Below, piece by piece: positions 6,478-46,840 of a DNA stretch of 64,000 bases (positions are counted from its first letter, which is position 1; each line of letters starts with the position of its first letter). The stretch comes from an uncultured Alphaproteobacteria bacterium (GTDB taxonomy: Bacteria > Pseudomonadota > Alphaproteobacteria > HIMB59 > GCA-002718135). The notes under the pieces are model-generated. The model made no database searches. It was not told the origin of the DNA and saw only the letters and a list, made by a program, of their open reading frames with translations. The DNA is taken from positions 151,936-215,935 of the forward strand of contig CACMQB010000002.1 in the NCBI GenBank assembly GCA_902615745.1. Reading direction: 5' to 3'. The translations under genes and the position numbers were made by a program.

Positions 6478-6591
6478 ATTATTACACGCAAAGGTAATAA
6501 TCAATTTAATAAAAGGAAACGATTATTAAATTGTATCGGGAGGAAATGCACGATACACAAAAGGGACCTAGCTTGCTGGGTCCTTTTTTTT
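6478..6591 (+). promoter_or_regulatory. candidate structured leader RNA / attenuator upstream of the deaminase gene (class unassigned)
   Basis: A 279-nt gap in an otherwise gapless genome. It contains mutually exclusive AT-rich helices (6478-6485/6494-6501 versus 6496-6502/6521-6527), the hairpin GTATCG..CGATAC (6533-6556), and an intrinsic terminator 45 nt before the ATG at 6636. Confidence 0.3.
6560..6591 (+). terminator. rho-independent terminator
   Basis: aaagggacctag-CTTG-ctgggtccttt stem-loop followed by a T8 run, read directly from the sequence. Confidence 0.65.
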
Positions 6592-7208: not shown

Positions 7209-7243
7209 TTGTTAAATTATAAAAATAAGTATACAAATAATTA

Positions 7244-7384
7244 GCGGGAGATACTGAAATTTCAGAGCCGAAGGAGCAACGACCCGGAAACTCTCAGGCA
7301 CAATGGACCGTTAAAAAAAAACTCTGGAAAAGAGCATCTAGCTCTACCGAAGGTGAAAAGCTCTCAGGTAAAAAGACAGAGGGG
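7244..7384 (+). promoter_or_regulatory. tandem glycine riboswitch (two aptamers)
   Basis: Aptamer 1: gcgggagat...gccgaaggagcaac...ctctcaggcacaatggaccgt. Aptamer 2: ctctggaaaagag...taccgaaggtgaaaa..ctctcaggtaaaaagacagag. It lies directly upstream of gcvT, with the RBS ggag at 7391. Confidence 0.9.
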
Positions 7385-30587: not shown

Positions 30588-30668
30588 TTTCATCATAAAT
30601 TTAATTTTCAGAAACTATTGAAATACAATCATTATTTTTGTAGAATTTTTTAATTATTGGGAGGTAAT

Positions 30669-31877
30669 ATGAAATTACTAGTAAAATTATTTTTAATTTC
30701 TTTAACTATTCTTCCATTCGCTAAAACTACTTCTGCAGAAGAATTAATCATTTGGAGTAGAGGTGGATGGTCAGACTGGATGGTTGAAGGGTTTAATAAA
30801 AAAATGGCTGACGAAGGAAAAGATATCGTTGCTATTAACAACCTTATTGGTCATGCTGACTTTCAGGTTAAATTTACAGCTGCACTTGCTGCTGGTGAAA
30901 GAGTTGATGTTGCAAACATCGACTTAATTAACGTACCTTATTATGCTGCAATAGGTGCATTAGAAGATATGACTGACTTTTTAAAGTCACAACCATATTA
31001 TGATCAATTAAATGGTCCAATGCTTGCTTTAGGATCTTATGATGGAACACACTTTGCTGCACCAAATGCTGCTGATGTGTCTGGTTATGTTTATAATAAA
31101 AAACTTATGCCAAACCCACCAAAAGATTGGGCTGAGATGACAAGTATGTGTGAAGACTTTGCTGCTAGAGGACAACTAATGATGGCTTGGCCTTCAAAAA
31201 GTTATGGCGGTATGATCTTTACAGGTATGCCAGTTGCTTGGGCAAATGGCGGTTCATGGGTAAGTAAAGATGGTAAAACAGCTGAGTTAAATCATCCAAA
31301 AACAGTTGAATGGTTTAAGCATTACCAAAATTTAATTAATATTGGTTGTGTGCCAGAAAACGTAGATGTTTGGGATTGGCCAGATAAACAAGATGGTTTC
31401 CTAGCAGGTGATATCGCAATGATTGGTACAGGTAACTTCATGATTAATGTTGTTAAAGATCACACAGAAAAAGTAGATGCTGGATTTACAGCATTTATGG
31501 GTAGTGATGGTTCAAGAAATTCAGCATTTATCGGAGGTGACTTAATCGCAATCCCAGTTACAACTGGCGCTAAAGAAGCAGCTCTTGAATATATTGAATA
31601 TGTATTATCTGAAGCTGGTCAAATCGAAGTATATACTAAAAACGGTGGTATACCAATTCGAGCAGATCTATTTGAAGGTAATCCATACCTAACTGATGAT
31701 CACATGGTATTTGCAAATGCATCTACTGTTGGAGATGTTCCTTATACAACTGTTTATCAGGAGTTAATGGATCCATGGCAAGTAGCAAATCAACGAATTT
31801 TTGCTGGTGAAGATGTGCAGACGGTTCTTGATGAACAAAATGCAATCATGCAAAAAATCATTGATGCTGGTCATTAA
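30669..31877 (+). CDS. ABC sugar transporter substrate-binding protein (family 1 SBP)
   Basis: Signal peptide MKLLVKLFLISLTILPFAKTTSA after the RBS gggagg. Trp/Gly-rich SBP fold. Heads an SBP-permease-permease-ATPase operon. Confidence 0.8.
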   Translation: MKLLVKLFLISLTILPFAKTTSAEELIIWSRGGWSDWMVEGFNKKMADEGKDIVAINNLIGHADFQVKFTAALAAGERVDVANIDLINVPYYAAIGALEDMTDFLKSQPYYDQLNGPMLALGSYDGTHFAAPNAADVSGYVYNKKLMPNPPKDWAEMTSMCEDFAARGQLMMAWPSKSYGGMIFTGMPVAWANGGSWVSKDGKTAELNHPKTVEWFKHYQNLINIGCVPENVDVWDWPDKQDGFLAGDIAMIGTGNFMINVVKDHTEKVDAGFTAFMGSDGSRNSAFIGGDLIAIPVTTGAKEAALEYIEYVLSEAGQIEVYTKNGGIPIRADLFEGNPYLTDDHMVFANASTVGDVPYTTVYQELMDPWQVANQRIFAGEDVQTVLDEQNAIMQKIIDAGH

Positions 31878-31903
31878 TAGATAAAACATTGTAGGCGAAA
31901 CTT

Positions 31904-32782
31904 ATGAGTAGATTACGAAAAGAACAACTCGTTGGTCTTTTAATGGTTTCGCCTGCACTAATTTTACTTGCAGTTTTCTTTCTTTATCCTCTTGTAAATT
32001 CTTTTTACATGTCATTTCACAAATGGCCACTTTTTGGAAAACCTAAGTGGGTAGGTCTGGATAACTATATTTTTATGTTCCAGGATGAACGCTTCTGGGA
32101 GTCTTTGAAATTTACTTTTGTTTATACTTTAACTGTTACACCAATGTTGTTTGTTGTCGCTATTGGAACTGCACTATTATGTAACGCAAAAGCTTGGGGA
32201 ACAACTTTTTTTAGAAGTATCTATTTTTTACCTGTAGTTATGTCTTTTGCCACAGCTAGCTATGTATGGTTATGGCTCTACAGTGAAATGTATGGAGTTA
32301 TCGTTTATGCATTAGAATTTTTCGGTTTTGGTGGAGAAAATAAAAATCTTAATGTGTGGAAAACAGGAACATCTTCAATGTGGGCCGTTAATGCTATGGT
32401 TACGTGGAAGTTTTCTGGTATCCAAATGATTATTTTGATAGCCGGATTACAAGCTATTAGAGATGATTATTACGAAGCATCTAAATTAATGGGAGCCTCA
32501 CGATGGCAAACAATTTGGAATGTAACACTTCCTCTACTTCGACCTTCAATTGCCCTTGCTTTAATTTTATCGATAGCAGGTTCAATTCAAGCATATGAAC
32601 AATTTGTAATCATGACAAGAGGTGGTCCTTCAAACTCTACTAAAACACTTGTTATGCATACTGTTGATATGGGATTTGATTATTTCAAATTAGGTCCAGC
32701 TGCATCTCTTGGTGTAATTATAATGATAATACTTTTTGTACTTACTGTAATTCAATTACGTTTATTTAGAAAGAATTACTAA
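31904..32782 (+). CDS. ABC sugar transporter permease, MalF/UgpA type
   Basis: 6 TM with EAA loop YYEASKLMGASRWQTIWNVTLPLLRP. Confidence 0.85.
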   Translation: MSRLRKEQLVGLLMVSPALILLAVFFLYPLVNSFYMSFHKWPLFGKPKWVGLDNYIFMFQDERFWESLKFTFVYTLTVTPMLFVVAIGTALLCNAKAWGTTFFRSIYFLPVVMSFATASYVWLWLYSEMYGVIVYALEFFGFGGENKNLNVWKTGTSSMWAVNAMVTWKFSGIQMIILIAGLQAIRDDYYEASKLMGASRWQTIWNVTLPLLRPSIALALILSIAGSIQAYEQFVIMTRGGPSNSTKTLVMHTVDMGFDYFKLGPAASLGVIIMIILFVLTVIQLRLFRKNY

Positions 32783-33709
32783 GTGAGACGTTACTCATCG
32801 GATTGGTACTGGTATTATGCAATTAATTATACTTTAGTTATAATAATTATTTTTCCAATTTATTGGACACTTATTTCTTCATTTAAAAAACCTAGTGAGC
32901 TAATTACTAGTGAGCCTACTTTTTATCCTCATGATTTAACTTTGCAGTATTATGATCAAATTTGGAATTTTGATAGACTTAAAAGACTTCAAGATACTGA
33001 GTCTGAAGATTCAGAATCATCTGGTGTTGAAATTGAGAGCAAATTTCGACTTGATGGTGAAGGAGTCAAAAGACCTTTTATGAATAGTGCAATAGTTTCA
33101 GCTGGAACAATTATATTAACTATTATTGTTTGTACCTTAGGCGGATATGCACTGACTGTTTTAAATACTCCTTTAAAAAATTTTTTTTTCTTATTAGTAA
33201 TATTACCAATTTTAATACCAGGTATTTCTCTAATAATTCCTCTCTATAAATTATTAAAAGACCTTGGCCTTACTAATACTCATTTAGGTTTAATCTTAAT
33301 TCATACTTGTGGCATGTTGCCTTTAGGAATCTTTATGATGAGAAATGCGTTTAATAGTATTCCTTCCTCATTAAGAGAAGTAGCAATGCTTGAAGGATCA
33401 AGTGAATTAAAAATTATTACTTCTGTTATGCTGCCGTTAGCAATTCCCGGTCTTTTAACAGTTATGGTTTTTGCAATGTATGTTTCCTGGAATGATTACA
33501 TTTATGCTTTTATATTTATAAATTCACCAGAAAATACAATGTTAAATATTTCATTAATGAAAATTGCATTAGGTGGATCTCAATTTGAAATGAAATGGGG
33601 AAGTCTAACAGCGGGCTCAATTGTTAGTTTTCTTCCAATAATAATTTTTTATACTTTTCTTCAGCAATATTTTGTTAGAGGAGTTACAGGAAGCGCAGTT
33701 AAAGAATAG
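32783..33709 (+). CDS. ABC sugar transporter permease, MalG/UgpE type (copy 1)
   Basis: GTG start abuts the upstream TAA. EAA loop LREVAMLEGSSELKIITSVMLPLAIPG. Acidic Ser/Glu-rich insert after TM1. Confidence 0.85.
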   Translation: MRRYSSDWYWYYAINYTLVIIIIFPIYWTLISSFKKPSELITSEPTFYPHDLTLQYYDQIWNFDRLKRLQDTESEDSESSGVEIESKFRLDGEGVKRPFMNSAIVSAGTIILTIIVCTLGGYALTVLNTPLKNFFFLLVILPILIPGISLIIPLYKLLKDLGLTNTHLGLILIHTCGMLPLGIFMMRNAFNSIPSSLREVAMLEGSSELKIITSVMLPLAIPGLLTVMVFAMYVSWNDYIYAFIFINSPENTMLNISLMKIALGGSQFEMKWGSLTAGSIVSFLPIIIFYTFLQQYFVRGVTGSAVKE

Positions 33710-33717
33710 GGGGTTAT

Positions 33718-34773
33718 ATGTATTCTGTAGATTTAAAAAATGTAACAAAAAAATGGGGAGATGTTACTGCTGTCGATCAAGTAAATCTCCATATTAATGA
33801 AGGTGAATTCGTTGTACTTTTAGGTCCCTCAGGATGTGGTAAAACAACTACGATGCGTCTTGTTGCTGGATTAGAAGATATAACTGATGGTGAGATAAAA
33901 ATTGGTGACGAAATTGTAAATGATGTTGACCCAAGAAAAAGAGATGTATCAATGGTATTTCAAAATTATAGTCTTTTCCCCCACATGACTGTTAGAAATA
34001 ATATTGCTTATCCTCTAAAAATGAAAAAAATTCCTAATTCAGAACATGATAAACTTATTAAAGAAGTTTCTTCACTTGTTGAATTGCAAGATTTATTACA
34101 CCGTAAACCAGCCGAACTATCAGGTGGTCAAAGACAACGTGTTGCTCTAGCAAGAGCAATAGTTCGTCAACCACGTGTTTTTTTAATGGATGAGCCTCTT
34201 TCAAATCTTGATGCTATATTGAGAGTTACGACGAGAGCAGAATTAAAAAATCTACATCACCGACTTGGTGTAACAACAATATATGTAACACATGATCAAG
34301 TAGAGGCAATGACACTTGCAAATAGAATTGCTGTTATGAATCACGGTAAACTTTTGCAGTTTGATAAACCACAGGTAATATTTGATGATCCTTCTTCTAA
34401 ATTTGTTGCTGGTTTTATTGGTTCACCTGCAATGAATTTGATTGATGGCCGTGTAGAAAACAAAAAATTTATTTCTGATAGTCTTACCACATCTTTTGAT
34501 ATTGATTATGAAGGTGATATTACACTTGGAGTAAGACCTGATAAAATTCAAATAGTTAATGATACTGATACAAATAATGGATCTGCAAAAGTTTATTCTG
34601 TCGAATTAACCGGTGAAGCAAATCTAGTAACATTTAAATCAAATAATCAAAATCTAATTGTCAAAACAGATAAAAATACACATTATGATATTGATTCCGT
34701 TTTAAAATTAAATTTCAATAAAGAAGATTGTTACTTTTTTGATATAAATAGTGAGGAGAGATTGAGAATATGA
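33718..34773 (+). CDS. ABC sugar transporter ATP-binding protein (MalK/UgpC type)
   Basis: Walker A GPSGCGKTT, LSGGQRQRVALARA, Walker B FLMDEPLS, and a C-terminal regulatory/TOBE-like domain. Confidence 0.9.
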   Translation: MYSVDLKNVTKKWGDVTAVDQVNLHINEGEFVVLLGPSGCGKTTTMRLVAGLEDITDGEIKIGDEIVNDVDPRKRDVSMVFQNYSLFPHMTVRNNIAYPLKMKKIPNSEHDKLIKEVSSLVELQDLLHRKPAELSGGQRQRVALARAIVRQPRVFLMDEPLSNLDAILRVTTRAELKNLHHRLGVTTIYVTHDQVEAMTLANRIAVMNHGKLLQFDKPQVIFDDPSSKFVAGFIGSPAMNLIDGRVENKKFISDSLTTSFDIDYEGDITLGVRPDKIQIVNDTDTNNGSAKVYSVELTGEANLVTFKSNNQNLIVKTDKNTHYDIDSVLKLNFNKEDCYFFDINSEERLRI

Positions 34774-36716
34774 ACATTACAGATACAAAAATAAATAACG
34801 GTTTTTGGAAAGAGAGAAAAGAATTAAACAAAAGCGTTTCTTTATATGCAGTTTTAAAATCATTTGAAGATACTGGAAGAATTAGAGCGCTGACTGGTGA
34901 CAATGATCCTGTGAAAGAAAGGCCACATATTTTTTGGGAGTCAGATCTAGCAAAATTAATGGAAGGTGCCTTCTTTTCTATGCAGCAAGAAAAGGATGAA
35001 AAATTAGAACAAATATGTGATTCAATTATTGATAAAATTATCGCTAACCAAGAGGAAGATGGTTATTTAAATTATTTTTTCTCAAAACATGAACCAGATA
35101 ATAAATTTACGAATTTAAGAGATAGACATGAATTATATTGTGCAGGACATTTACTGGAATCTGCAGTTGAACATCATAAAGCGACAGGAAATTCAAAATT
35201 TTTCGATGCTATGGAAAGATATGTTGATCATATTATTTCTAAATTTGGAAAAGAAGAAGGGAAGATGAGAGGCTATCCTGGTCATCAAGAAATTGAATTA
35301 GCACTTGTAAAAGCTTATGAGCATACAAATAAGAAAAAATTTCTTGATCTTGCAACTTACTTTATAGACGAACGTGGAACCCACGATAAACCCGAAGATC
35401 ATTATTATGTAAAAGAAAAAAAGAAATTAATGGAAAAAGAAGGTGAAATTGATTTTTCATTATTGCCGTCAGCAATGAGAGATTTTGCAGCTTTCGATCA
35501 AGATTTCATGGGTAAAACATTTAGAGATTTGCATTATTGGCAGGCTCATGAGAGGCCAGTTGATCAAAAGACAGCTGAAGGACATTCTGTAAGAGCTCTG
35601 TACATGTTTACTGCCATGGCGGACTTAGCAAGATTAAATAATGATGAGCAAATGTTAAAGGCTTGTAAAACTTTATGGAGAAATATTGTTGATAAAAGAA
35701 TGTATGTACACAGTGGTGTTGGAAGTGCTCATATAGGTGAGAGATTTACTTTTGATTATGATTTACCTAATGACATGGCTTATGCTGAGACATGTGCAAC
35801 AATAGCGCTAATTTATTTTGCTAATAGAATGTCAAAGATAGAATTAAATAGTGAGTATGGTGATATTGTTGAAAATAGTTTGTATAATTTATTACTAGCT
35901 AGCACTTCACTTGATGGAAAAGGATTTTTCTATGACAATTATTTAGAATGTAATCCTGGTTATTTACATTCGCAACAAAGAAGACATGGGGTAAGAGATG
36001 AATATCATAAGTGTTCTTGTTGTCCTCCAAATATCACACGTCTATTTGCAAGTATGGATATGTACATTTACAATGAATTTGAAGATTCATTAGTAATTGA
36101 TCAGTATATTTCATCAGAAACTAATTTTATGAATAAGCCTCAGGGTATAAAACTAAATCAAACCAGTGAATTCCCTCATAAAGGATATTCAAAAATTGAA
36201 ATAACTGACTCAGCTAATAAAGAAACTGCCATTTATTTCAGAATTCCTTCATGGGATAAGAACATGCAAATTAATCTTAATGGATCTAAAGTCGATTATG
36301 AAGTTGTTAATGGGTATGCAAAAATAAATAAAATTTGGAAAAAAAATGATGTTATTGAATTACATTTTGATTTTTCACCAAGGTATGTTCGAACTAATCC
36401 CAATGTAAGATACAATGTAGGAAGAGCATGTTTATTTAGAGGCCCTGTTCTTTATTGTCTAGAAGAACATGATAATGGTAATTACTTAAATAAATTAGTT
36501 TTAAATACAAATAATAATCTTGATGAAAAAAATGAAAAAATAAATTCTGAAGATATTATTTCTTTAACAACTAAAGGTTTTAAATTTAAAGATACTGATA
36601 ATTTATATATTCAAGATAAACCTGATATGATGGAAACATCACTCAAGTTTATTCCATATTATTGCTGGTCTAACAGAGGCGAAAATGAAATGTTAGTATG
36701 GGTTAATGAAAATTAA
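34770..36716 (+). CDS. GH127 beta-L-arabinofuranosidase family protein (DUF1680)
   Basis: 648 aa. Cys-rich catalytic/zinc signature HKCSCCPPNITR and ELYCAGHLLE. The ATGA overlap with the ATPase stop suggests translational coupling. Confidence 0.8.
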   Translation: MNITDTKINNGFWKERKELNKSVSLYAVLKSFEDTGRIRALTGDNDPVKERPHIFWESDLAKLMEGAFFSMQQEKDEKLEQICDSIIDKIIANQEEDGYLNYFFSKHEPDNKFTNLRDRHELYCAGHLLESAVEHHKATGNSKFFDAMERYVDHIISKFGKEEGKMRGYPGHQEIELALVKAYEHTNKKKFLDLATYFIDERGTHDKPEDHYYVKEKKKLMEKEGEIDFSLLPSAMRDFAAFDQDFMGKTFRDLHYWQAHERPVDQKTAEGHSVRALYMFTAMADLARLNNDEQMLKACKTLWRNIVDKRMYVHSGVGSAHIGERFTFDYDLPNDMAYAETCATIALIYFANRMSKIELNSEYGDIVENSLYNLLLASTSLDGKGFFYDNYLECNPGYLHSQQRRHGVRDEYHKCSCCPPNITRLFASMDMYIYNEFEDSLVIDQYISSETNFMNKPQGIKLNQTSEFPHKGYSKIEITDSANKETAIYFRIPSWDKNMQINLNGSKVDYEVVNGYAKINKIWKKNDVIELHFDFSPRYVRTNPNVRYNVGRACLFRGPVLYCLEEHDNGNYLNKLVLNTNNNLDEKNEKINSEDIISLTTKGFKFKDTDNLYIQDKPDMMETSLKFIPYYCWSNRGENEMLVWVNEN

Positions 36717-36731
36717 TTTTAATTAGTTTAA

Positions 36732-37592
36732 TTGATGCAAAAATATAAAACAGATTGGTATTTATATTATCTTATAAATGTCACTTTGATTATTCTTGTT
36801 TCATTTCCTATTTATTGGGCTTTTGTTTCATCTATAAAACCACCTGATGAATTAATAACAAATACCCCAACACTCTTTCCTATAAATCCAACATTTGAAA
36901 GTTATGAAAAAATTTGGAACTTAGAGCCCACTAGCTCTAGAGGTAATGTAAGATCTGCATTTACAAATAGTGCAATTGTTTCAATTGGAACTGTAGTGGT
37001 TTCAGCAGTTATTTCTACTTTAGCTGCATATGCTCTTACTATTTTAAGAACACCATTTAGACATTTTATTTTTTTACTTATAATTATGCCAATTTTAATA
37101 CCTGGAATATCACTCCTAATTCCTCTTTATAAATTAGTAAAAGAGCTTGGATTGATGAACTCATATTTAGGCTTAATCTTAATTCACTCCACAGGCATGC
37201 TAACTTTAGGTGTTTTTTTAATGAGAAATGCTTTTATGAGTATACCAACATCTTTACGTGAGGTAGCTTTGTTAGAGGGTTCTAGTGAGTTACGAATTAT
37301 GTTTACTGTGATGTTGCCATTAGCCATACCAGGTCTTTTAACACTCATGGTTTTTGCTCTTTATGGTTCATGGAATGATTTTATTTTAGCTTTTCTCTTT
37401 GTAAATACGATTGATATGGAAATGTTAAATGTTTTCCTAATGAAATTAACATTTGCAGGATCTCAATTTGATACTTTTTGGGGGCTTTTAAATGCCGGAG
37501 CAATAATAAGTTTTGTACCAATTATAATTTTCTATATTTTTCTTCAACAATACTTTGTTAGGGGAGTGACTGGAAGTGCCGTAAAAGAGTAA
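36732..37592 (+). CDS. ABC sugar transporter permease, MalG/UgpE type (copy 2)
   Basis: EAA loop LREVALLEGSSELRIMFTVMLPLAIPG and tail QQYFVRGVTGSAVKE identical to copy 1. TTG at 36732 or ATG at 36735. Confidence 0.85.
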   Translation: MMQKYKTDWYLYYLINVTLIILVSFPIYWAFVSSIKPPDELITNTPTLFPINPTFESYEKIWNLEPTSSRGNVRSAFTNSAIVSIGTVVVSAVISTLAAYALTILRTPFRHFIFLLIIMPILIPGISLLIPLYKLVKELGLMNSYLGLILIHSTGMLTLGVFLMRNAFMSIPTSLREVALLEGSSELRIMFTVMLPLAIPGLLTLMVFALYGSWNDFILAFLFVNTIDMEMLNVFLMKLTFAGSQFDTFWGLLNAGAIISFVPIIIFYIFLQQYFVRGVTGSAVKE

Positions 37593-37593
37593 C

Positions 37594-38490
37594 ATGAAAA
37601 GGTATTCATCTGATTGGTATTGGTATTATGTTATAAACTATGCTTTAGTAGTTATAATATTATTCCCTATTTACTGGACTTTTATTTCTTCTGTTAAAGT
37701 TCCAGATGAATTAATTACAAGTAACCCAACTTTCTATCCTCATAATTGGACATGGGAGTACTATGACACAACATGGAACTTCGATGATGAAATGAGAACT
37801 AAACTGCAAAAAAAAATATCTGGAAGTACAACCATAACAGCAGGTATTGAAAGAGCTTTTTTTAATAGTAGTATAGTCACATTAGGAACTATTGTTCTAT
37901 CTTTAATCGTTTCAACACTAGCTGGTTATTCTTTAACTTTTTTTAGGATACCATTTAAAGAAGCAATTTTTATAGCATTAATTTTACCGATATTAATTCC
38001 TGCAGTTTCATTGATTATACCAATCTATAAATTACTTAAATCTCTTGGCTTAACAGATACTCATATTGGATTAATATTTTTACATGCAACAGGTATGCTG
38101 CCTATTGGTGTTTTTATGATGAGAAATGCATTTAGTAGTATTCCTTCATCATTGAGAGAGGTAGCTTTGTTAGAGGGAACTTCAGAATTAAGAATTATGA
38201 CTACAATAATGATACCTCTGGCAGTGCCAGGATTATTAACAGTAATGGTTTTTGCCTTATATATTTCATGGAATGATTACATCTTGGCTTTCATATATAT
38301 AAATAGTCCAGAAAATATTATGCTTAATACTACACTTGCCAAAATAGCACTCGGAGGTGCTAAATTTGAAATGAAATGGGGTAATTTAACAGCAGGTTCA
38401 ATTATAAGTTTTATACCAATTATTATTATTTATTCAATTTTACAAAGATACTTTATTAGAGGTATTACAGGAAGTGCCGTTAAAGAATAA
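37594..38490 (+). CDS. ABC sugar transporter permease, MalG/UgpE type (copy 3)
   Basis: N-terminus MKRYSSDWYWYYVINY matches copy 1 (MRRYSSDWYWYYAINY). EAA loop conserved. 1-nt gap from copy 2. Confidence 0.85.
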   Translation: MKRYSSDWYWYYVINYALVVIILFPIYWTFISSVKVPDELITSNPTFYPHNWTWEYYDTTWNFDDEMRTKLQKKISGSTTITAGIERAFFNSSIVTLGTIVLSLIVSTLAGYSLTFFRIPFKEAIFIALILPILIPAVSLIIPIYKLLKSLGLTDTHIGLIFLHATGMLPIGVFMMRNAFSSIPSSLREVALLEGTSELRIMTTIMIPLAVPGLLTVMVFALYISWNDYILAFIYINSPENIMLNTTLAKIALGGAKFEMKWGNLTAGSIISFIPIIIIYSILQRYFIRGITGSAVKE

Positions 38491-38495
38491 AAGCT

Positions 38496-39314
38496 ATGTC
38501 TTTTATTTTTAAGGACAAGTTTTGGTACTATACGATTAATACTGTTTTATCTATTTTAATATTATTTCCTGTTCTAATAATATTAATTCTTTCTCTTAAA
38601 ACTACAACTGAAATTAGGTTTGATAATTTTTTAAGTAAATTTACTTTGAATAATTTTTTTACTATTTGGGATTTAGAAATAAGAACAAATAAAAATACTT
38701 TCAAACAATCTTTTTTTAATAGTTTAGTTGTAACAAGCGGAACTGTCATATTATCATTAGTTATTAATGTATTAGCAGGCTATGCCATTTCATTACTAAA
38801 AATACCCTATAAAAAATTTATATTTATTTTATTAATTTTACCTTTTTTAATTCCAGTTTATTCAATAATTATTCCTTTATATATTTTGCTCTATAAAATT
38901 AATTTAAATGATAGTTATTTAGGTTTAATTTTCATTTATACTATTTATGTTCTTCCAATTGGATTTTTTTTAATGTTCAATTCTTTTAATAGTATTCCTA
39001 AATCTTTAAGAGAAGTAGCAATTTTAAATGATAGTTCAGAATTAAAAATACTTTTTTCAATTATGCTTCCATTAGCTATCCCTGGTTTAATTACTTTAAT
39101 TATATTTGCTATCTATATTTCTTGGACAGATTATTTGCTCGCATTTATTATTATGAACTCGGCTGATATGCAAATGTTAAATGTTACTCTTTCTAAAATT
39201 GGGTTTAGGTCAATTTATCCATATGCTGGATATGTAATTTCTTACCTACCTTTCATGATTATTTTCATTTTGCTTCAAAAATTCTATTTTAAGAGTATAA
39301 TTTCATCATCTTGA
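38496..39314 (+). CDS. ABC sugar transporter permease, MalG/UgpE type (copy 4, divergent and AT-richer)
   Basis: EAA loop LREVAILNDSSELKILFSIMLPLAIPG is retained, but the C-terminal tail is different and shorter. Confidence 0.75.
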   Translation: MSFIFKDKFWYYTINTVLSILILFPVLIILILSLKTTTEIRFDNFLSKFTLNNFFTIWDLEIRTNKNTFKQSFFNSLVVTSGTVILSLVINVLAGYAISLLKIPYKKFIFILLILPFLIPVYSIIIPLYILLYKINLNDSYLGLIFIYTIYVLPIGFFLMFNSFNSIPKSLREVAILNDSSELKILFSIMLPLAIPGLITLIIFAIYISWTDYLLAFIIMNSADMQMLNVTLSKIGFRSIYPYAGYVISYLPFMIIFILLQKFYFKSIISSS

Positions 39315-39317
39315 AAT

Positions 39318-40352
39318 ATGAAAAATGAATTTATGAATGTGCCAATCTTTTCAGGAGATGGTAAAGTACATTTTGAAGAAAGAAAAATTCCAACGCCTGG
39401 AGATAATCAACTCTTAATTCAAGCAAAAGCAAATTTATTGTGTGGTTCTGACAGAAATCAATTTTACAATGGAAGTCCTCAATGCATTCCAGGCCATGAA
39501 GGAGCAGGAGTTATTGTGGAAAAAGGTAAAAATGCTAAATTTGATATTGGCATGAAAGGCGCTGTGTACTTGTATGATTATTGCCATAAATGTCGAAGTT
39601 GCCAATTAGGTTTAACTAATCAATGTTTACATAAAAACTGTGATTATGGTTTTAACGTTGATGGTGCTTTTTGTGAATATTACCTTGTAAATGATTATGT
39701 TTTTTTTCCAGTTGATGAAAGTGTAGATGTAATCAATGCGACATTGCTTTTAGATGTAATGGGTACTGGTGGTCATGCTACAAAAAGAGCTCAACTAATT
39801 CATAAAGATATCCAATCTGTACTAATAAATGGAGCAGGGCCTATAGGTCTTGGACTTTTAGCGATGAGTAAATTAACTTTTGCAAAAGATTTACCTGTTC
39901 TGATTAATGATGTTAAATCATCTAGATTGCCATTAGCGGAAAAGATGGGCGGCTTACCTATAGACTTATCAAAACAATCTTTAGAAGAGGGAATGGAACA
40001 ACACGGAATTAAAAACCCAGATGTTGCTATTGATGCCACAGGCAAAGCAATAGCCAGAAAAAATGCTCTTCAAGCTTTAGCTAAAAGAGGTGTGCTAGTT
40101 ATGGTTGGTAATGGTGAAGGTTTGGAATTTGAACAATATCCAGATATGGGAGGTCCTGAAAGAAGCATTCTTGGTAGCGAATATTTTTCTTACAATGAGA
40201 TGGAAGCAAATCATGAATTACTTAAAAATAACCAAGAATATTTATCTCAAATAATTACACATCAATATAATATTGAAGATGTTCAAAAATCTTACGAACA
40301 TTTTTTCTCTCCTGAATCTGATGCAGGTAAAATAGCTGTTGTTCATAAATAA
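39318..40352 (+). CDS. zinc-dependent medium-chain dehydrogenase (sorbitol/threonine dehydrogenase-like)
   Basis: Catalytic zinc residues CGSD...GHEGAG, structural zinc CHKCRSCQLGLTNQC, and NGAGPIGLG. Confidence 0.8.
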   Translation: MKNEFMNVPIFSGDGKVHFEERKIPTPGDNQLLIQAKANLLCGSDRNQFYNGSPQCIPGHEGAGVIVEKGKNAKFDIGMKGAVYLYDYCHKCRSCQLGLTNQCLHKNCDYGFNVDGAFCEYYLVNDYVFFPVDESVDVINATLLLDVMGTGGHATKRAQLIHKDIQSVLINGAGPIGLGLLAMSKLTFAKDLPVLINDVKSSRLPLAEKMGGLPIDLSKQSLEEGMEQHGIKNPDVAIDATGKAIARKNALQALAKRGVLVMVGNGEGLEFEQYPDMGGPERSILGSEYFSYNEMEANHELLKNNQEYLSQIITHQYNIEDVQKSYEHFFSPESDAGKIAVVHK

Positions 40353-40355
40353 TTT

Positions 40356-41336
40356 ATGAAAAAGATAAAAGTTGCACTTATTGGAACTGGTAATTGGTCT
40401 TTACAACATTGCCGTATTCTTTCACAAAGCCCTCAAGTGGAGTTCTGTGGCATTTTAGGAAGAAATAAAGAAAGAACTAAAAACAGAGCCAAACTTTATG
40501 ATGTTCCATATTATACTGATTTCAAAGAACTAATAAAAAATCAAAAACCTGATTTAATAAATATAAGTCTTCCAAATGAGCATCATTACGACATGACAAT
40601 GAAAGTGATTAAATCTAATACTCCTTTATTTGTTGAGAAACCTCTTGTTTTTAAAATGAGTGAAGCAAATAAACTTTTAACTGAAGCTAAAAAAAGAAAT
40701 CTCTTTTTTGGAATTAATTTTAATTGGCATTATTCTACTCCAGTAAAAAAAGCGATTAAAGCTATTAAAAATAATCAGTTAGGAGAAATTAATTTTATTA
40801 CATGGAGATTTGGTGGTGGAGGAGGTGGAAAAAATTTAGATCCTAACGGGAACTTAATTGAAACTCAATGCCATGGATTTGATATGCTTGAATATTTAAA
40901 TGGACCAATAAAATCAGTTCATTCGTTTATGACAGATAAAACAAAAAAAGGTTTTAGTACGATGGTTGTATCAATGAATTTCAAAAACAAATCAATTGGA
41001 AGCTTGCTTGGATCATATGATACATCTTATCAATATCCTAATTCTCATTATGTAGAAATAAATGGTTCAAAGGGAAGAATTTTAATAGAGGATCAGGTAC
41101 AAAAATATACATTTAATAAGAAAGATAGTGAAACCGCTGAAGTGTGGAAAGCAGGATTTTTTAATGATTACGAAAGAGAGTTTTTACGAACATTTGATGA
41201 GCATTATAAAGAAGTAATTAATAATTTTATTAAAGGCAAAAAACCGCCAATACATGCTGAAGCTGGAAAACGAGCTTTAGAACTTGCACTTGCATCAATT
41301 AAATCTTTTAAATTAAAAAAAGTTATAAATATTTAG
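40356..41336 (+). CDS. Gfo/Idh/MocA family oxidoreductase
   Basis: N-terminal KVALIGTGNW Rossmann motif and the LFVEKPL motif. Confidence 0.8.
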   Translation: MKKIKVALIGTGNWSLQHCRILSQSPQVEFCGILGRNKERTKNRAKLYDVPYYTDFKELIKNQKPDLINISLPNEHHYDMTMKVIKSNTPLFVEKPLVFKMSEANKLLTEAKKRNLFFGINFNWHYSTPVKKAIKAIKNNQLGEINFITWRFGGGGGGKNLDPNGNLIETQCHGFDMLEYLNGPIKSVHSFMTDKTKKGFSTMVVSMNFKNKSIGSLLGSYDTSYQYPNSHYVEINGSKGRILIEDQVQKYTFNKKDSETAEVWKAGFFNDYEREFLRTFDEHYKEVINNFIKGKKPPIHAEAGKRALELALASIKSFKLKKVINI

Positions 41337-42133
41337 CGCTGATAAACAATTTTGTTCATCGGATGATCGGCTATTTCTCCAGCTTTTTTTCCACCAAGAA
41401 ATAATTCAGCATCTCCTTTTCTATCTTTTGTATCAAGTTTGCCTACACGAGATCCATCTGCATAGTATGTTACAACCATTGCTTCACGTATTTTGTCTGA
41501 TTTATTTAATCCAGCTCCATGAATAGTCCATCCAAAATGAAAAGTACAATCACCAGCATCTATTGAGTCCAATTCAACAACTTCCAAATTTTTTTCTTCA
41601 ATTATTTTATCATAATGATCTTCTGATTTTTTATTTATTGATATACCCATTAAATCACCCATTGTATGAGAATTTTTTACAAATCGCATAATACCCATAT
41701 CTTTTGTACAATCGATCAAAGGCATCCACATTCCAATATGTAAATTAGTATCTAAGGGCCAAAAAAATTGGTCTTGGTGCCAATATGATTTTGTATCTCC
41801 TGGATGTTTAAAAATTGCTTGTTCATGAAAAATTCGAACAGCATTAACCTTCATTAAATCAGCAGCAATTTTCCCTAAACGTTTTGATAAACAAAATTTT
41901 TCAACACCTTTTGAATCATAGCGAATATTAAGTGCTTGATAAAAAGCACCACCAAATTCTTTATCTTTATTTTTATTTCTTTCTTCTGCTACTTTTTTTA
42001 TTTCATCTCTATATTTAGAAACTTCATTCTTTGATAAAACATTTTTTAAAACTACAAACCCATTTTGCCAAAAAAAATCAATTTTTTCTTTTTCTAAGTT
42101 ATAATAATTGTCGATATCTGGTAATTTTGTCAT
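41333..42133 (-). CDS. phytanoyl-CoA dioxygenase (PhyH) family oxygenase
   Basis: WHQDQFFWPLD (HxD) and distal TIHGAGLN. The convergent 4-nt overlap with the preceding gene involves the two stop ends. Confidence 0.7.
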   Translation of the reverse strand: MTKLPDIDNYYNLEKEKIDFFWQNGFVVLKNVLSKNEVSKYRDEIKKVAEERNKNKDKEFGGAFYQALNIRYDSKGVEKFCLSKRLGKIAADLMKVNAVRIFHEQAIFKHPGDTKSYWHQDQFFWPLDTNLHIGMWMPLIDCTKDMGIMRFVKNSHTMGDLMGISINKKSEDHYDKIIEEKNLEVVELDSIDAGDCTFHFGWTIHGAGLNKSDKIREAMVVTYYADGSRVGKLDTKDRKGDAELFLGGKKAGEIADHPMNKIVYQR

Positions 42134-42279
42134 ATTTTATAAACATTATAATAAAAATTGTTATTAAATAACAATTCAATTAACTTACTGAAAAATAATA
42201 TATTTTTCAATCCGATTACACTTGAAAAAGAATATTAAATGGTATTAAATTTAAATATTAAATAATTTTGGGAGGAATT

Positions 42280-43542
42280 ATGAAAAATAAAATTATTTCT
42301 TTCTTCGCTGGAATAGTAATTTCCATTTACTCATTTGGTGCATCTGCAGTTACTGAAGTTGTTTGGTGGGATTTTCTAGGTGGTGGAGATGGTGTTAGAA
42401 TGAAGCAAATGATTGATAATTTCAATGAAGCTCATCCTGATATCCAAATTAATGCTACAACTTTAGAATGGGGTGTTCCATTTTATACTAAAGTTCAAAC
42501 ATCTGCAGCTGTTGGAGAGCAACCTGATATTATGACTTATCATTTATCAAGATTCCCTCTAGCAGTACCTACTGGAGTGTTAAGACCAATAAGTGCTGAA
42601 GAACTAGCAAGTGTTGGAATTACAGCTGATAGATTTTTTCCTGCTAACTGGGAAGCAGCTAACTTTGGAGGTGCAACGCATGGTGTTCCACTAGATATTC
42701 ATGCTAACGTTATGTATTTTAATGCAGAAGTGTTAGGTGAAGCTGGTTTACTTGATGAAAATGGTCATCCAACATTATTAGATGGTGTAGATAATTTTAT
42801 GAATGGTCTAGCTAAACTAGATGAAATGATGGAATTTCCAATTGGTTTCGCTTCTGATAACGGAGGTATGATTTGGAGATGGTGGTATTCGATCCTTAAC
42901 ATGATGGAAGGAGATTTTGTAGACGGAAGTAGTATTTGTCCTGGAGATAAATGTGAAAAATCTTTACAAATTTTAATCGATCTTGTTGAAAAAGGATATA
43001 TGCCAAGTAACGTCGATTACCAATCTGCAAAAGGTATGTTTATAAGTGGTGAGTCGGCAATTCACATCAACGGCGTATGGGAAGTTCCTACTATGGTTGA
43101 TTTAATGCGAAATAATGAATTAGGTTTCAAATTTGGTGTTGTAGATATGCCTCAAGTTGGTCCTAAAATGGCTACGTGGTCTGATTCGCATGCATTTGCT
43201 ATTCCTCACAGTGATAAAAATCCAATATCCGATGAGAAACTGGAAGCAGTTTTAAAAGTTATGGGTTGGATGAGTGATAATAGTCTCTTCTGGGGAACAG
43301 CTGGTCATATACCTGCAAATACAGAAGTTGTAGATAGTGTATTCTATAAAAATATGCAGCCAAATAGCACTTATGCTAATATTGGTGAAAATATGGTTGT
43401 AGATCCATTCTTACCTATCGCAGGTGTTGCTTCACCAACTTATGATGCTTTTAGTAACTATATTGCTCCGGCAGTTAATGGTGAATTAAGTGCTGAAGAA
43501 GCAATTCAAATGATGAGAGATGATCTTGAAGCTCTAATGTAG
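42280..43542 (+). CDS. ABC sugar transporter substrate-binding protein (second system)
   Basis: RBS gggagg, then MKNKIISFFAGIVISIYSFGASA signal peptide. Family-1 SBP-like sequence. Confidence 0.8.
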   Translation: MKNKIISFFAGIVISIYSFGASAVTEVVWWDFLGGGDGVRMKQMIDNFNEAHPDIQINATTLEWGVPFYTKVQTSAAVGEQPDIMTYHLSRFPLAVPTGVLRPISAEELASVGITADRFFPANWEAANFGGATHGVPLDIHANVMYFNAEVLGEAGLLDENGHPTLLDGVDNFMNGLAKLDEMMEFPIGFASDNGGMIWRWWYSILNMMEGDFVDGSSICPGDKCEKSLQILIDLVEKGYMPSNVDYQSAKGMFISGESAIHINGVWEVPTMVDLMRNNELGFKFGVVDMPQVGPKMATWSDSHAFAIPHSDKNPISDEKLEAVLKVMGWMSDNSLFWGTAGHIPANTEVVDSVFYKNMQPNSTYANIGENMVVDPFLPIAGVASPTYDAFSNYIAPAVNGELSAEEAIQMMRDDLEALM

Positions 43543-43565
43543 AGTTAAGATCTTTTTATAAAACT

Positions 43566-43590
43566 AAGCTGCAGTACTTTACTGCAGCTT
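43566..43590 (+). other. perfect 11-bp stem / 3-nt loop intercistronic hairpin after the SBP gene
   Basis: aagctgcagta-ctt-tactgcagctt, 24 nt after the stop codon. No downstream T-tract, so it may be an RNA-stability or partial-termination element rather than a full terminator. Confidence 0.55.
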
Positions 43591-43601
43591 AAATTTAAAA
43601 T

Positions 43602-44483
43602 ATGAAAAAATATAGTAATTCAAATTTTTGGGGCCTCTTGCTTGCTTTCCCTTTTATATTTTTTTATGTTCTATTTTTACTTTATCCTACAATTTATACT
43701 TTATTATTCAGTTTCACTGACTCTCCTTTAATTGGATGGGGTAAATGGGTAGGTTTAGAAAATTATTTTAAGCTTCTTAATGATAAACTTTTTCTTAAAT
43801 CATTAAAAAATACATTTGTTTTTGTTTTTTGGACAGTTGTGCCAAATACTTTAATTGGTCTGATGTGTGCAATGATGATCAATAGACTTAAAAATCCTTA
43901 TATTGCAGCATTTCTTTTAGCTTGTTTCTTTATACCACACATTTTACCTGTTACGGTAGTAACTCAAGTTTGGTCTTGGATGTTATCTAAACAATACGGA
44001 ATTATTCAAGAATTCTTAGAATTTTTGGGTTATGCAAAAATTGCTTTTTTCAAGAAAAAACAATTTGCAATGCCAGCTGTAGCAATTGTAACAATTTGGT
44101 GGACCGTAGGTTTCAATATTTTATTATTTATTGCTGGTCTAAAATCAATTAATCCAGAAATTTACGAAGCATCTGATTTGGATGGAGCAAATTCTTGGGC
44201 TAAGTTCAGATATATAACTTGGCCTTTAATTTGGCCTATCACAGCTCTTGTTTTAACATTGCAATTAATTTTTCAACTTAAAATTTTTGATCAAATGTAT
44301 TTATTAACTGCAGGCGGTCCGTTTAATTCAACATTAGTTGTTTTACAATTAGTTTACAAACAAGGTTTTCAAATGAATAGAGGAGGTTATGCTTCCGCTA
44401 TAGCTATGGTACTTTTCTTAATAATTATAGTTGTGTCTATAATGCAATATTATGTTTTGAGAGATAAGGAAAAAGATAAATAA
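43602..44483 (+). CDS. ABC sugar transporter permease, MalF/UgpA type (second system)
   Basis: EAA loop YEASDLDGANSWAKFRYITWPLIWP. Confidence 0.85.
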   Translation: MKKYSNSNFWGLLLAFPFIFFYVLFLLYPTIYTLLFSFTDSPLIGWGKWVGLENYFKLLNDKLFLKSLKNTFVFVFWTVVPNTLIGLMCAMMINRLKNPYIAAFLLACFFIPHILPVTVVTQVWSWMLSKQYGIIQEFLEFLGYAKIAFFKKKQFAMPAVAIVTIWWTVGFNILLFIAGLKSINPEIYEASDLDGANSWAKFRYITWPLIWPITALVLTLQLIFQLKIFDQMYLLTAGGPFNSTLVVLQLVYKQGFQMNRGGYASAIAMVLFLIIIVVSIMQYYVLRDKEKDK

Positions 44484-45313
44484 TGACAAAAAAAATTACA
44501 ATATCTTGGACAGTCTTAACAATTCTTTCTTTGATAGTCGCATTAATTTTTATGTTTCCATTATATTGGGCTGCAGTTACTTCACTAAAACAAGAAACTG
44601 AAGTTATAGATCCAAACTGGTCTATTTTTCCAAGAATTTTATCATTAGCAGCATATCTAGATGTATTAACAAAATCTGCAATTGGTACTTGGTATATAAA
44701 TTCAATTGCCACTTCAATTGGCATTACGCTTTTAGTTATTTTGATTAGTATGCCATGTGGTTATGCTTTATCTCAAATTGATTTTGTCGGAAGAAAAATT
44801 ATTCTTTTAGCAGTAGTAGTAAGCATAATGGTTCCTGGAACAGCATTAGTTATTGCTCTATTTGTTCTCATTTCAGATTTTAATATGATCAATACTTGGT
44901 CTGGAGTTATATTACCTCAAGTTCTCTCACCAGTTTGTGTCATAGTTTATAAACAATTTTTTGATCAAGTTCCTAAAGAATTAAGAGAGGCAAGTATCAT
45001 TGATGGAGCAACTGAATTTCAAATTTTAATAAAAGTGTATATGCCCTTAAACTGGGGCATCACAACTGCTTTAGCCTTAGTTACATTTATTGGAGCATGG
45101 AATAATTTCTTTTGGCCTTTTATAATGACAACTAAAGCTGAAATGTTCACTGTTCCTGTAGCAATAACATCTGTTAGTGATGCTTATGGAATATTCTTAG
45201 CGAGAGACATGGCAGTTGCCATTCTTGCCGCTTTACCTGTTACAGCATTTTTCTTAATTTTCCAAAAACGCGTTACTCAAGCAATAATGTTAACTTCTGG
45301 AATTAAAGGTTAG
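44483..45313 (+). CDS. ABC sugar transporter permease, MalG/UgpE type (second system)
   Basis: EAA loop LREASIIDGATEFQILIKVYMPLNWG. 1-nt overlap with the upstream gene. Confidence 0.85.
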   Translation: MTKKITISWTVLTILSLIVALIFMFPLYWAAVTSLKQETEVIDPNWSIFPRILSLAAYLDVLTKSAIGTWYINSIATSIGITLLVILISMPCGYALSQIDFVGRKIILLAVVVSIMVPGTALVIALFVLISDFNMINTWSGVILPQVLSPVCVIVYKQFFDQVPKELREASIIDGATEFQILIKVYMPLNWGITTALALVTFIGAWNNFFWPFIMTTKAEMFTVPVAITSVSDAYGIFLARDMAVAILAALPVTAFFLIFQKRVTQAIMLTSGIKG

Positions 45314-46836
45314 TGATGAAAGCAAATATTACAGCTGTAAAAGATTTTACTATTTCTACTATAGATAAAAGAATTTATGGTTCCTTCTTGGAGCATTTAG
45401 GAAGAGCAATATACGAAGGTATTTATGAACCTGATCATCCAGAAGCTGATGAAAATGGTTTTAGAAAAGATGTAATGAAATTAATCACAGATTTAAATAT
45501 GCCAACGGTAAGATATCCTGGTGGAAATTATATATCATCATTTAACTGGGAAGATTCAATTGGTCCAATAGAAGAGAGACCTACAAGACTTGATCTTGCG
45601 TGGAAGACAAGAGAAACAAATGAGTTTGGGTTAAATGAATTTATTACTTGGTGTAAAAAAACAAATATTGAACCAATGTATGCTATCAATCTTGGAACAC
45701 GCGGTATAGATGCTGCTAGGAACATATTAGAATATTGTAATCATCCAAGTGGTTCTTATTGGAGTGATTTAAGAATTAAGCATGGATATAAGGAGCCACA
45801 TGATATTAAAATGTGGTGTTTAGGAAATGAAATGGATGGTGAGTGGCAAGTTGGTCACAAAACTGCTACTGAATATGGCAGATTGGTCCATGAAGTTGCT
45901 AAATCTATGAGAAAATTTGATTCTTCTTTAGAGTTAATTATTGCTGGGAGTTCAAATGAGGCAATGCCTACTTACCCGGACTGGGAAAGAGAAATATTAG
46001 AACATAGTTATGATTCAATTGATTATATAGCGCTTCATAAATATTGGACTAATTATGAAAAAAATACTAATTCATATTTATCAAGTAGTGTTCCTTTACA
46101 AGAATATATATCAACTGTTGAAGGTACAATTAATTACGTAAAAGCAAAAAAAAGGTCGAAAAAACAAATTAACATAAGTTTTGATGAGTGGAATCCTTGG
46201 TATCACACTAGAGACATGCAAACTCAAAATTATTTAGATAAAAACTTATCTGATTGGCCTAAGGCACCACCTTTGTATGAAGATATGTATAATATATTAG
46301 ATACATTGTTAGTTGGAACAGTTTTAAATACATTCATTAATAATTCTCACATAGTAAAAATTGGTTGTATGGCTCAATTAGTCAACGTAATACCTGCTAT
46401 TTCAACTGTAAAACAAGGTATTAGCTGGCCCCAAAGTATTTATTATCCATTATATTTTGCATCATTGTATGGAAGAGGAGATTCTTTACAACTCAAAGTA
46501 GATTGCCCTAAATATTCTTCAGAAATAGCAGATGATGTTAAGTATATTGATGCTTCTGCTGTTTTGAATAAAGAAAAAAATGAAGTATCTTTTTTTATCG
46601 TTAATAGATCAGAAAATGATAATTGTAACATTGATTTTGATTTAAAAGATTTCAATGTGGATAGTATTATTGATCAACAGATAATTAATAATGAAGATAT
46701 GTATGCAGCTAACACTAAGGACAATCCTCATGTAATTAAACCTAAAGAGACATCTATAGTTAAACTTAAAGATAATAAGTTATCAACTGATATACCTAAA
46801 TTATCATATTTGTTTATTAGATTAAAACTTAATTAA
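45313..46836 (+). CDS. abfA: GH51 alpha-L-arabinofuranosidase
   Basis: IYGSFLEHLGRAIYEGIY, VRYPGGNY and WCLGNEMDG (acid/base Glu), about 500 aa. GTG at 45313 or ATG at 45316. Confidence 0.85.
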   Translation: MMKANITAVKDFTISTIDKRIYGSFLEHLGRAIYEGIYEPDHPEADENGFRKDVMKLITDLNMPTVRYPGGNYISSFNWEDSIGPIEERPTRLDLAWKTRETNEFGLNEFITWCKKTNIEPMYAINLGTRGIDAARNILEYCNHPSGSYWSDLRIKHGYKEPHDIKMWCLGNEMDGEWQVGHKTATEYGRLVHEVAKSMRKFDSSLELIIAGSSNEAMPTYPDWEREILEHSYDSIDYIALHKYWTNYEKNTNSYLSSSVPLQEYISTVEGTINYVKAKKRSKKQINISFDEWNPWYHTRDMQTQNYLDKNLSDWPKAPPLYEDMYNILDTLLVGTVLNTFINNSHIVKIGCMAQLVNVIPAISTVKQGISWPQSIYYPLYFASLYGRGDSLQLKVDCPKYSSEIADDVKYIDASAVLNKEKNEVSFFIVNRSENDNCNIDFDLKDFNVDSIIDQQIINNEDMYAANTKDNPHVIKPKETSIVKLKDNKLSTDIPKLSYLFIRLKLN

Positions 46837-46840
46837 TTTT

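Follow-up and report, generated by a model that had tools for sequence, protein, structure and literature searches.

A single MalF-type and four MalG-type permease genes in a SAR11 importer operon linked to a GH127 glycosidase

Type I importers of the ATP-binding cassette (ABC) family are textbook two-permease machines, and what determines their specificity is usually taken to be the binding protein together with the membrane site of the MalF-type subunit. The closest described systems of the CUT1 class, MalFGK2-MBP of E. coli, LpqY-SugABC of mycobacteria and AlgM1M2SS-AlgQ2, have one F-type (MalF-like) and one G-type (MalG-like) permease gene each. The operon analysed here lies in a 64-kb stretch of contig CACMQB010000002.1 (the window, meaning the whole of that stretch) and encodes members of the same families: a solute-binding protein (SBP), F, G, and an ATPase of MalK type that carries OB and TOBE domains. 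Its permeases share with those systems a predicted topology of six transmembrane (TM) helices and an EAA loop; three of its G copies, G1 to G3, also have the P3 scoop loop in full, and their C-terminal tail matches the SugB tail found in the SugC dimer. Unlike them, this operon and its relatives have up to four G-type genes per F, and in the fourth copy, G4, neither the scoop tip nor the tail is present. All the parts are typical of the CUT1 importer family; what is out of the ordinary is the gene stoichiometry.

In LpqY-SugABC, the P1 and P3 loops of SugB touch the binding protein, P3 being the scoop loop that enters the sugar-binding cleft, and the C-terminal tail of SugB inserts into the dimer of the ATPase, SugC; SugA and SugB have one shared fold and are related by pseudo-twofold symmetry (PMC7608808). 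CUT1 importers are linked to GH127 genes elsewhere: in the beta-arabinooligosaccharide system of Bifidobacterium longum, whose GH127 enzyme is HypBA1, and in SBP-F-G-K-GH127 cassettes (K being the ATPase gene) of marine Proteobacteria metagenome-assembled genomes (MAGs; L130-L132), of soil and other metagenomes (L101-L128) and of Dorea and Faecalicatena (L042, L043). The F protein is 65% identical to those of its closest non-SAR11 cassette relatives. Unlike the non-SAR11 cassettes, which have one G with a short P1, a full scoop and a tail, the SAR11 loci add one to three G genes after GH127.

The presence here of one ATPase gene beside two to three permease sets that lack their own recalls MsmK of streptococci and MsiK of Streptomyces; HisJ/ArgT with HisQMP2, and LivJ/LivK, are likewise cases in which one component serves several partners. 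What is shared in all of these is either the ATPase or a complete translocator, and what varies is a full F+G pair or the binding protein; exchange of one membrane subunit alone occurs in none of them, and we know of no other instance. The working proposed below also has an analogy in group II energy-coupling factor (ECF) transporters, in which a common EcfAA'T module is combined with alternative specificity subunits. The likeness ends there: families and mechanism are unrelated, ECF transporters having no binding protein and an S component that topples, and no ECF family is among the Pfam hits of the locus. No published description of a one-F/many-G arrangement was found in open-access papers and preprints, in keeping with the preliminary description of this DNA, whose author was not aware of such an architecture having been described.

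The operon and its permease types

The window has a GC content of 25-33% (about 28% overall). Its close homologues are labelled Pelagibacteraceae in their source records, and it is nearly identical to contigs from single-cell genomes, AG-920-E11 among them, and to one from a marine metagenome (L015, L051). The operon, at 30657-41336, comprises ten plus-strand genes in the order SBP1, F1, G1, K, GH127, G2, G3, G4, ADH, GFO (Table 1), with 0-26 nt between neighbours or an overlap of 4 nt. The gene coordinates of the preliminary description agree with the open reading frame (ORF) list, and its junction gaps of 1 nt (G2/G3) and 5 nt (G3/G4) with a direct reading of the sequence. No plus-strand terminator-like site was found by scanning the operon; a promoter-like site at 30618-30646, before SBP1, is not significant alone. 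The promoter and terminator scans gave no signal above chance.

All five permeases, F1 and G1-G4, pass the Pfam threshold for BPD_transp_1. In sequence searches of the PDB, F1 matches SugA, AlgM1 and MalF, and G3 and G4 (phmmer) match SugB, AlgM2 and MalG chains. Foldseek with the AlphaFold2 (AF2) model of G1, whose mean predicted local distance difference test score (pLDDT) is 75, gives SugB and MalG chains as best matches; G2 is typed as MalG-like through its 63% identity to G1 alone. Searched with a hidden Markov model of F-type relatives, the 64 kb yield F-type ORFs at 31904 and 43602 only. The count of one MalF-type to four MalG-type genes put forward in the preliminary description therefore holds for the first system, though not for the whole locus, which has two F-type and five G-type genes, a second system with a 1:1 ratio being present at 43602-45313. 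The canonical count of one F and one G per CUT1 locus is broken in the window operon, with its one F-type and four G-type genes, and likewise in more than 40 related loci. At the level of sequence, the comparisons that follow show G1-G4 to be four functional, anciently diverged MalG/SugB-type subunits of a predicted SAR11 uptake operon for beta-L-arabinofuranoside-type sugars.

Four old groups of MalG-type proteins

At the protein level G2, G3 and G4 are 63%, 68% and 46% identical to G1. Synonymous sites between the paralogues are saturated (proportion of synonymous differences, pS, 0.60-0.67) and DNA identity between copies is 60-74%, without long identical tracts, which speaks against recent duplication, gene conversion and assembly artefact. 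Trees resolve four orthologous groups, with bootstrap values of 100% for G2 and G3, 93% for G1 and 86-100% for G4. Ratios of nonsynonymous to synonymous divergence (dN/dS), computed between lineages with dS of about 0.2-1.9, are 0.03-0.09 for G1, 0.03-0.075 for G2, 0.02-0.04 for G3 and 0.13-0.15 for G4; this range of 0.02-0.15 is comparable to the values for F1 (0.017-0.036, or roughly 0.02-0.04) and K (0.02-0.06). The saturation, the dN/dS values and the supported groups bear out the view that these are old paralogues under purifying selection, neither artefacts nor decaying duplicates.

A search of related assemblies shows that the one-to-many arrangement recurs across SAR11 lineages: one to three extra G genes follow GH127 on more than 40 independent single-cell and metagenome contigs, many of which come from the same populations, so that locus counts are not counts of independent events. 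(An exact-sequence look-up with G2 gave no match, and G3 homologues served instead.) Taking the low-GC loci in which DNA after GH127 is visible, the order is G2, G3, G4 in 24, G3, G4 without G2 in 13, and ADH, a 320-residue G and a 278-residue G4-like gene in five that belong to a more distant lineage. A single extra G is found in L091 (a 320-residue copy) and in the degraded L076 and L092, and in L061, where GH127 is off the contig, G2 and G3 are followed by ADH across a clean 1-nt junction, G4 having been lost. Loci with one (L091), two (L001 and L061) and three (the window) extras all occur, and no locus type with extras is without G3 or a copy related to it. The canonical G (308 residues) and the extra G (320 residues) of the distant lineage both fall in a G3-related clade, which implies that duplication, or replacement of one copy by another, has happened more than once.

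Two loci have unusual layouts. In the metagenome contig L087 (1-11469) two tandem copies of the block K-GH127-ADH-G(320 residues) precede the G4-like gene; either about 5 kb has truly been duplicated there, or the assembly has looped through the 308- and 320-residue G genes, which are similar. In L049 (5651-6669) a LacI remnant is followed by a 62-residue fragment resembling the N-terminus of a G1-type protein and then by an intact G4-like gene of 277 residues, 64% identical to G4, with a C-terminal tail between the full and lost forms.

To locate the differences between copies we mapped the consensus identity between the four G groups on the AF2 topology of G1: TM1 8-33, P1 34-95, TM2 96-125, TM3 132-160, TM4 167-191, EAA loop 195-219, TM5 221-245, P3 246-267 and TM6 from 268. 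The G4 model (pLDDT 73) still has six TM helices, as does that of G1. Identity between groups is lowest in P1, at 0.25; it is 0.44-0.45 in the short N-terminal and C1 segments, 0.48-0.74 in the TM helices (0.74 in TM5), within the range 0.48-0.75 in the P3 loop, and highest, 0.75, in the EAA loop. Inside each group, by contrast, P1 conservation is 0.92. Being variable between groups and conserved within them, P1 indicates, on the evidence of these alignments, a group-specific function rather than drift. Examples of group-specific P1 sequence are NLEPTSSRG in G2, NF(D/N)DEMRTKLQK..SGSTTITAGIERAF in G3 and DLEIRTNKNTFKQS in G4. The acidic insert of G1 (residues 73-89), which is predicted to be disordered in the AF2 model, differs in length between lineages. 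More generally, P1 of G1/G3-type proteins is length-polymorphic (in G1, at residues of about 62-95), with an aligned segment of 44-66 residues and acidic or Ser/Thr/Asn-rich inserts.

These data agree with the preliminary description that the segment after TM1 is essentially unalignable between copies, and the AF2 models, by placing P1 between TM1 and TM2, support its predicted periplasmic location. That divergence is focused on this first periplasmic loop is right in so far as P1 has the lowest identity, but G4 is also altered at the P3 tip and in the tail. G1-G3 have a full-length P3 scoop loop between TM5 and TM6, aligned with SugB residues at about 216-240, and all members of the G4 clade have a deletion of 6-7 residues at its tip, seven in the G4 of the window. 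The ending RG(V/I)TGSAVKE is, as had been reported, common to G1-G3 and absent from G4 (tail identity 0.89 among G1-G3, 0.11 between G4 and G1-G3); the G3 tail aligns with that of SugB. G4 of the window lineage ends instead in KSIISSS, its tail lost, and deep-branching G4-like proteins keep the tail. The EAA loop is intact in all four copies, as claimed, although in G3 (TSEL, MIPLAVPG) three residues differ from the motif as it was quoted.

Partners of the extra G copies

Cassettes outside SAR11 give an indication of the starting point. All 27 higher-GC non-SAR11 loci with an SBP-F-G-GH127(-K) cassette have a single G. The nearest relatives by F1 (65-66% identity), L130, L131 and L132, have a GC content of 43-60% and one G in the cassette. 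This G has a short P1, a complete scoop and a tail that reads RGVTG(S/G)(A/S)VKE, which makes both the deletions in G4 and the long inserts in P1 of G1 and G3 derived features. On this comparison of sequences the multi-G state is itself derived, and confined to SAR11 among the loci compared. In L132, a Hyphomicrobiales MAG, GH127 is followed by a 138-residue BPD_transp_1 gene, which was considered as an ancestral extra G and rejected: at ~30% identity it is a fragment of an unrelated G-type gene.

If the extra copies work with an F-type subunit, F1 is the one in view. They never adjoin a MalF-type gene, and the F1 relatives whose neighbourhood was examined (the F1/G1 class itself, a class at 74-75% identity with a 313-residue G, one at 61-63%, and the outgroups) all stand beside a G of their own; no orphan F-type gene was seen in ~60 SAR11-type loci or among these classes. 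Had the extras always been paired with MalF-type genes encoded elsewhere, the preliminary description reasoned, they would be simply parts of split operons; no such pairing appears in the examined loci, where each F has its own G beside it.

F and G of this operon also differ in rate. In relatives with a 1:1 ratio the two diverge equally (F/G identities of 80/83, 93/94, 70/74 and 97/96%). Between SAR11 lineages, however, F1 is 95-96% identical while G1 is 72-82% identical, or about 86% outside P1, and F1 has the lowest dN in the operon in comparisons with L007 and L001. An F1 that must fit several partners would be the most constrained component, and partly redundant G partners would be freer to change; the asymmetry fits F1 acting as a hub.

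The ancestral cassette had one MalF-type and one MalG-type gene, as it still does in other bacteria; repeated duplication in SAR11 then multiplied G, and F, the ATPase gene and the binding-protein gene of the operon stayed single. On our preferred reading each G copy would be an alternative partner of the single F1 and the K2 ATPase dimer, and the cell would assemble several isoforms of one importer. These would have a common ATPase-coupling surface and a periplasmic face that varies in P1 and, for G4, in the scoop loop, this face being where the binding protein docks and is made to give up its ligand; the isoforms would differ in the ligand-loaded binding protein, or in the size or linkage of the oligosaccharide, that they handle. 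Such an arrangement would be a cheap route to a wider substrate range in a streamlined genome. It is suggested by there being no other F-type partner in view, by the occurrence of extras singly, in twos and in threes, and by the rate asymmetry. We put the sharing of one F1 and one K2 dimer by alternative G subunits close to, if short of, an even chance. Its fuller form, a modular type I importer in which a constant MalF and ATPase core takes up to four exchangeable MalG specificity adaptors, one of them scoop-less, is a tentative proposal that we would sooner doubt than affirm.

Several points weigh against the sharing of F1. G2-G4 are translationally packed together, far from F1, which would have to be produced in surplus should all the G copies depend on it. 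The lack in G4 of two MalG-specific elements fits a MalF-like role in a G/G4 pair equally well. In related islands (L048) a further binding protein is accompanied by an F and a G that belong to it, so that docking of a new binding protein seems normally to need both subunits. The hub signature, moreover, is indirect and comes from few lineage pairs, and distant F-type genes in complete genomes lie outside the comparison. That each G might dock a binding protein of its own, one of the possibilities raised in the preliminary description, is not favoured, since the operon has one SBP and the extra SBPs nearby carry their own F and G; release of ligands of different size or linkage from one binding protein is an equally open reading.

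The strongest competitor, which we nevertheless judge unlikely, is that the extras form translocators without MalF, by pairing with each other (for example G3/G4 or G2/G4) or by homodimerising on the shared ATPase, with G4 as a MalF-like, scoop-less partner. SugA and SugB do have a common fold and pseudo-twofold symmetry (PMC7608808). Wherever a G4-type gene occurs, the gene immediately upstream of it is of the G1/G3 type or a remnant of one, in the 13 loci with G3 and G4, the 24 with G2, G3 and G4, the five with the 320-residue G and G4-like gene, and behind the fragment in L049; and because the G4 clade lacks the scoop tip and window-lineage G4 the tail, a G/G4 pair would keep one scoop and, here, one tail, like an F/G pair. 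Homodimeric type I importers, ModB2 and MetI2, exist. We know of no CUT1 system, however, that works without a MalF-type subunit, and in MalFGK2 and SugABC the sugar-binding site in the membrane is provided mostly by this subunit. The extras of the window number three, an odd count, deep-branching G4-like proteins retain the tail, and evolution of G1 at 3-5 times the rate of F1 would be left unexplained. Extras without G4 are found in L061 (G2 and G3, with the clean junction to ADH) and L091 (one 320-residue copy); these two loci defeat the version in which G4 is the obligate MalF-like partner of the other extras, leaving the weaker form as the competitor described.

The other alternatives have less to commend them. 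Split operons, in which G2-G4 pair with F2 of the second system or with an F-type gene outside the window, would be in keeping with an ATPase that seems to be shared with systems that lack their own, which would mean that cross-operon assembly occurs in the island; but F2 has its adjacent Gx, the 64 kb hold only two F-type ORFs, the ~60 SAR11-type loci yielded no orphan, and the downstream system varies under the same G2-G4 set, with a reversed F2-like gene at 33-35% identity in L017 and L018, another binding protein in L007, and a different content again in L001. This variation disposes of pairing with F2 as a general answer, and we consider split operons improbable. Quite improbable, too, is a role other than translocation, whether in regulation or as decoys, by titration of F1, K or the binding protein, or simply as dosage copies of G1. 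Such a role would suit a G4 that lacks the elements for ligand release and ATPase coupling, and a window without the LacI-type regulator that follows GFO in other lineages. It sits badly with strong purifying selection over the full length, TM helices and EAA loop included, and with P1 loops that are group-specific yet conserved, a pattern that speaks for separate, specific interactions and against dosage; paralogues that are 46-68% identical are no dosage copies, and to our knowledge regulatory or decoy permease subunits have no precedent. Assembly duplication, or pseudogenes from a recent duplication, we regard as practically negligible: some contigs are fragmented or seemingly rearranged (L008, L052, L087, L009), but intact genes are present in many single-cell and metagenome assemblies, and the DNA identities, dN/dS values and recurrence given above rule out recent duplication, gene conversion and artefact.

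Should the sharing of F1 by alternative G subunits be true, the second permease could itself be a variable specificity module, and the importer a type I counterpart of the shared-module ECF transporters, offering a new route to a wider substrate range in streamlined genomes. SAR11 is the most abundant heterotroph of the surface ocean; its genes are under pressure of loss, and its transport properties shape the turnover of dissolved organic carbon.

Gene features, island and substrate

The features of the operon and of the system downstream are collected in Table 1. The true start of G2 is probably the ATG at 36735, which gives 285 residues as in the orthologues, and not the TTG at 36732.

Table 1. 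Genes of the importer operon and of the second system, in window coordinates.
Gene	Coordinates	Strand	Description	Evidence or remark
SBP1	30657-31877	+	family-1 extracellular solute-binding protein, first system	Pfam SBP_bac_8 and SBP_bac_1; MalE-like PDB matches
F1	31904-32782	+	sole MalF/SugA-type permease gene of the first system	BPD_transp_1; best PDB matches SugA, AlgM1, MalF
G1	32783-33709	+	MalG/SugB-type permease, canonical position, long acidic P1 insert	BPD_transp_1; AF2 model; Foldseek
K	33718-34773	+	the island's only MalK-type ATPase gene	ABC_tran, OB_MalK, TOBE_2
GH127	34770-36716	+	beta-L-arabinofuranosidase-like glycosidase	three GH127 Pfam domains; PDB 4qjy, E 1.7e-148
G2	36732-37592	+	extra MalG-type permease, short P1 (NLEPTSSRG)	BPD_transp_1; 63% identity to G1
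G3	37594-38490	+	extra MalG-type permease, most constrained copy	BPD_transp_1; PDB matches
G4	38496-39314	+	extra MalG-type permease without scoop-loop tip and C-terminal tail	BPD_transp_1; PDB matches; AF2 model
ADH	39318-40352	+	Zn-dependent alcohol/sugar dehydrogenase, same operon, 3 nt after G4	ADH_N, Glu_dehyd_C, ADH_zinc_N
GFO	40356-41336	+	GFO/IDH/MocA oxidoreductase, last gene of the operon	Pfam; accompanies the locus in most variants
SBP2	42268-43542	+	solute-binding protein, second system	ordinary 1:1 permease ratio
F2	43602-44483	+	F-type permease, second system	F-type HMM (hidden Markov model) match
Gx	44483-45313	+	G-type permease, second system	24% identical to G1
GH51-like	45313-46836	+	alpha-L-arabinofuranosidase, second system	
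GH2	46841-48670	+	GH2, second system	

The second system (42268-48670) has no ATPase gene beside it, and L048 has three SBP-F-G sets with one ATPase gene; together they imply, at the level of gene content, that one MalK-type ATPase may serve several translocators. Both systems lie in an island of ~18 kb (30.6-48.7 kb of the window) between an EamA gene pair and a DHDPS-family gene. At the equivalent site, 18 other SAR11 single-cell genomes have only a GH127 gene (68-73% identical) and no ABC transporter, which marks the ABC genes, the oxidoreductases and the second system as a flexible island.

The enzymes provide clues to the substrate. In the alignment of GH127 with 4qjy the motifs AYAETCA (ETC) and CCPPN are kept, whose residues we take, from HypBA1, to be the catalytic and zinc ligands; the enzyme is probably cytoplasmic, having no obvious N-terminal signal sequence by eye. 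The GFO/IDH/MocA oxidoreductase is a candidate sugar 1-dehydrogenase. A non-phosphorylative L-arabinose pathway is known, and by analogy with it this enzyme may oxidise the released arabinose, and the DHDPS-family gene may encode the keto-deoxy-arabinonate enzyme. The locus points to uptake of beta- and alpha-L-arabinofuranosides, plausibly derived from algal cell-wall glycoproteins, as a niche trait carried on a flexible island.

Other genes of the region vary. Between 30657 and 48670 no gene of the window was recognised as a regulator; where L007, L012 and L044 carry a LacI-type regulator after GFO, the window has a PhyH-family dioxygenase gene (41333-42133, minus strand). Downstream of the G genes, the island variants L001-L006, L011 and L048 have fatty-acid desaturase genes between their sugar transporter sets, along with Pantoate_transf (PanB-like) genes, one or two in number. 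Elsewhere in the window, two plus-strand RNA elements match Rfam above the gathering score: an IMES-4 RNA motif at 6478-6557 (101.7 bits), upstream of the ORF at 6636, and a glycine riboswitch aptamer at 7235-7320 (60.4 bits), upstream of the ORF at 7402.

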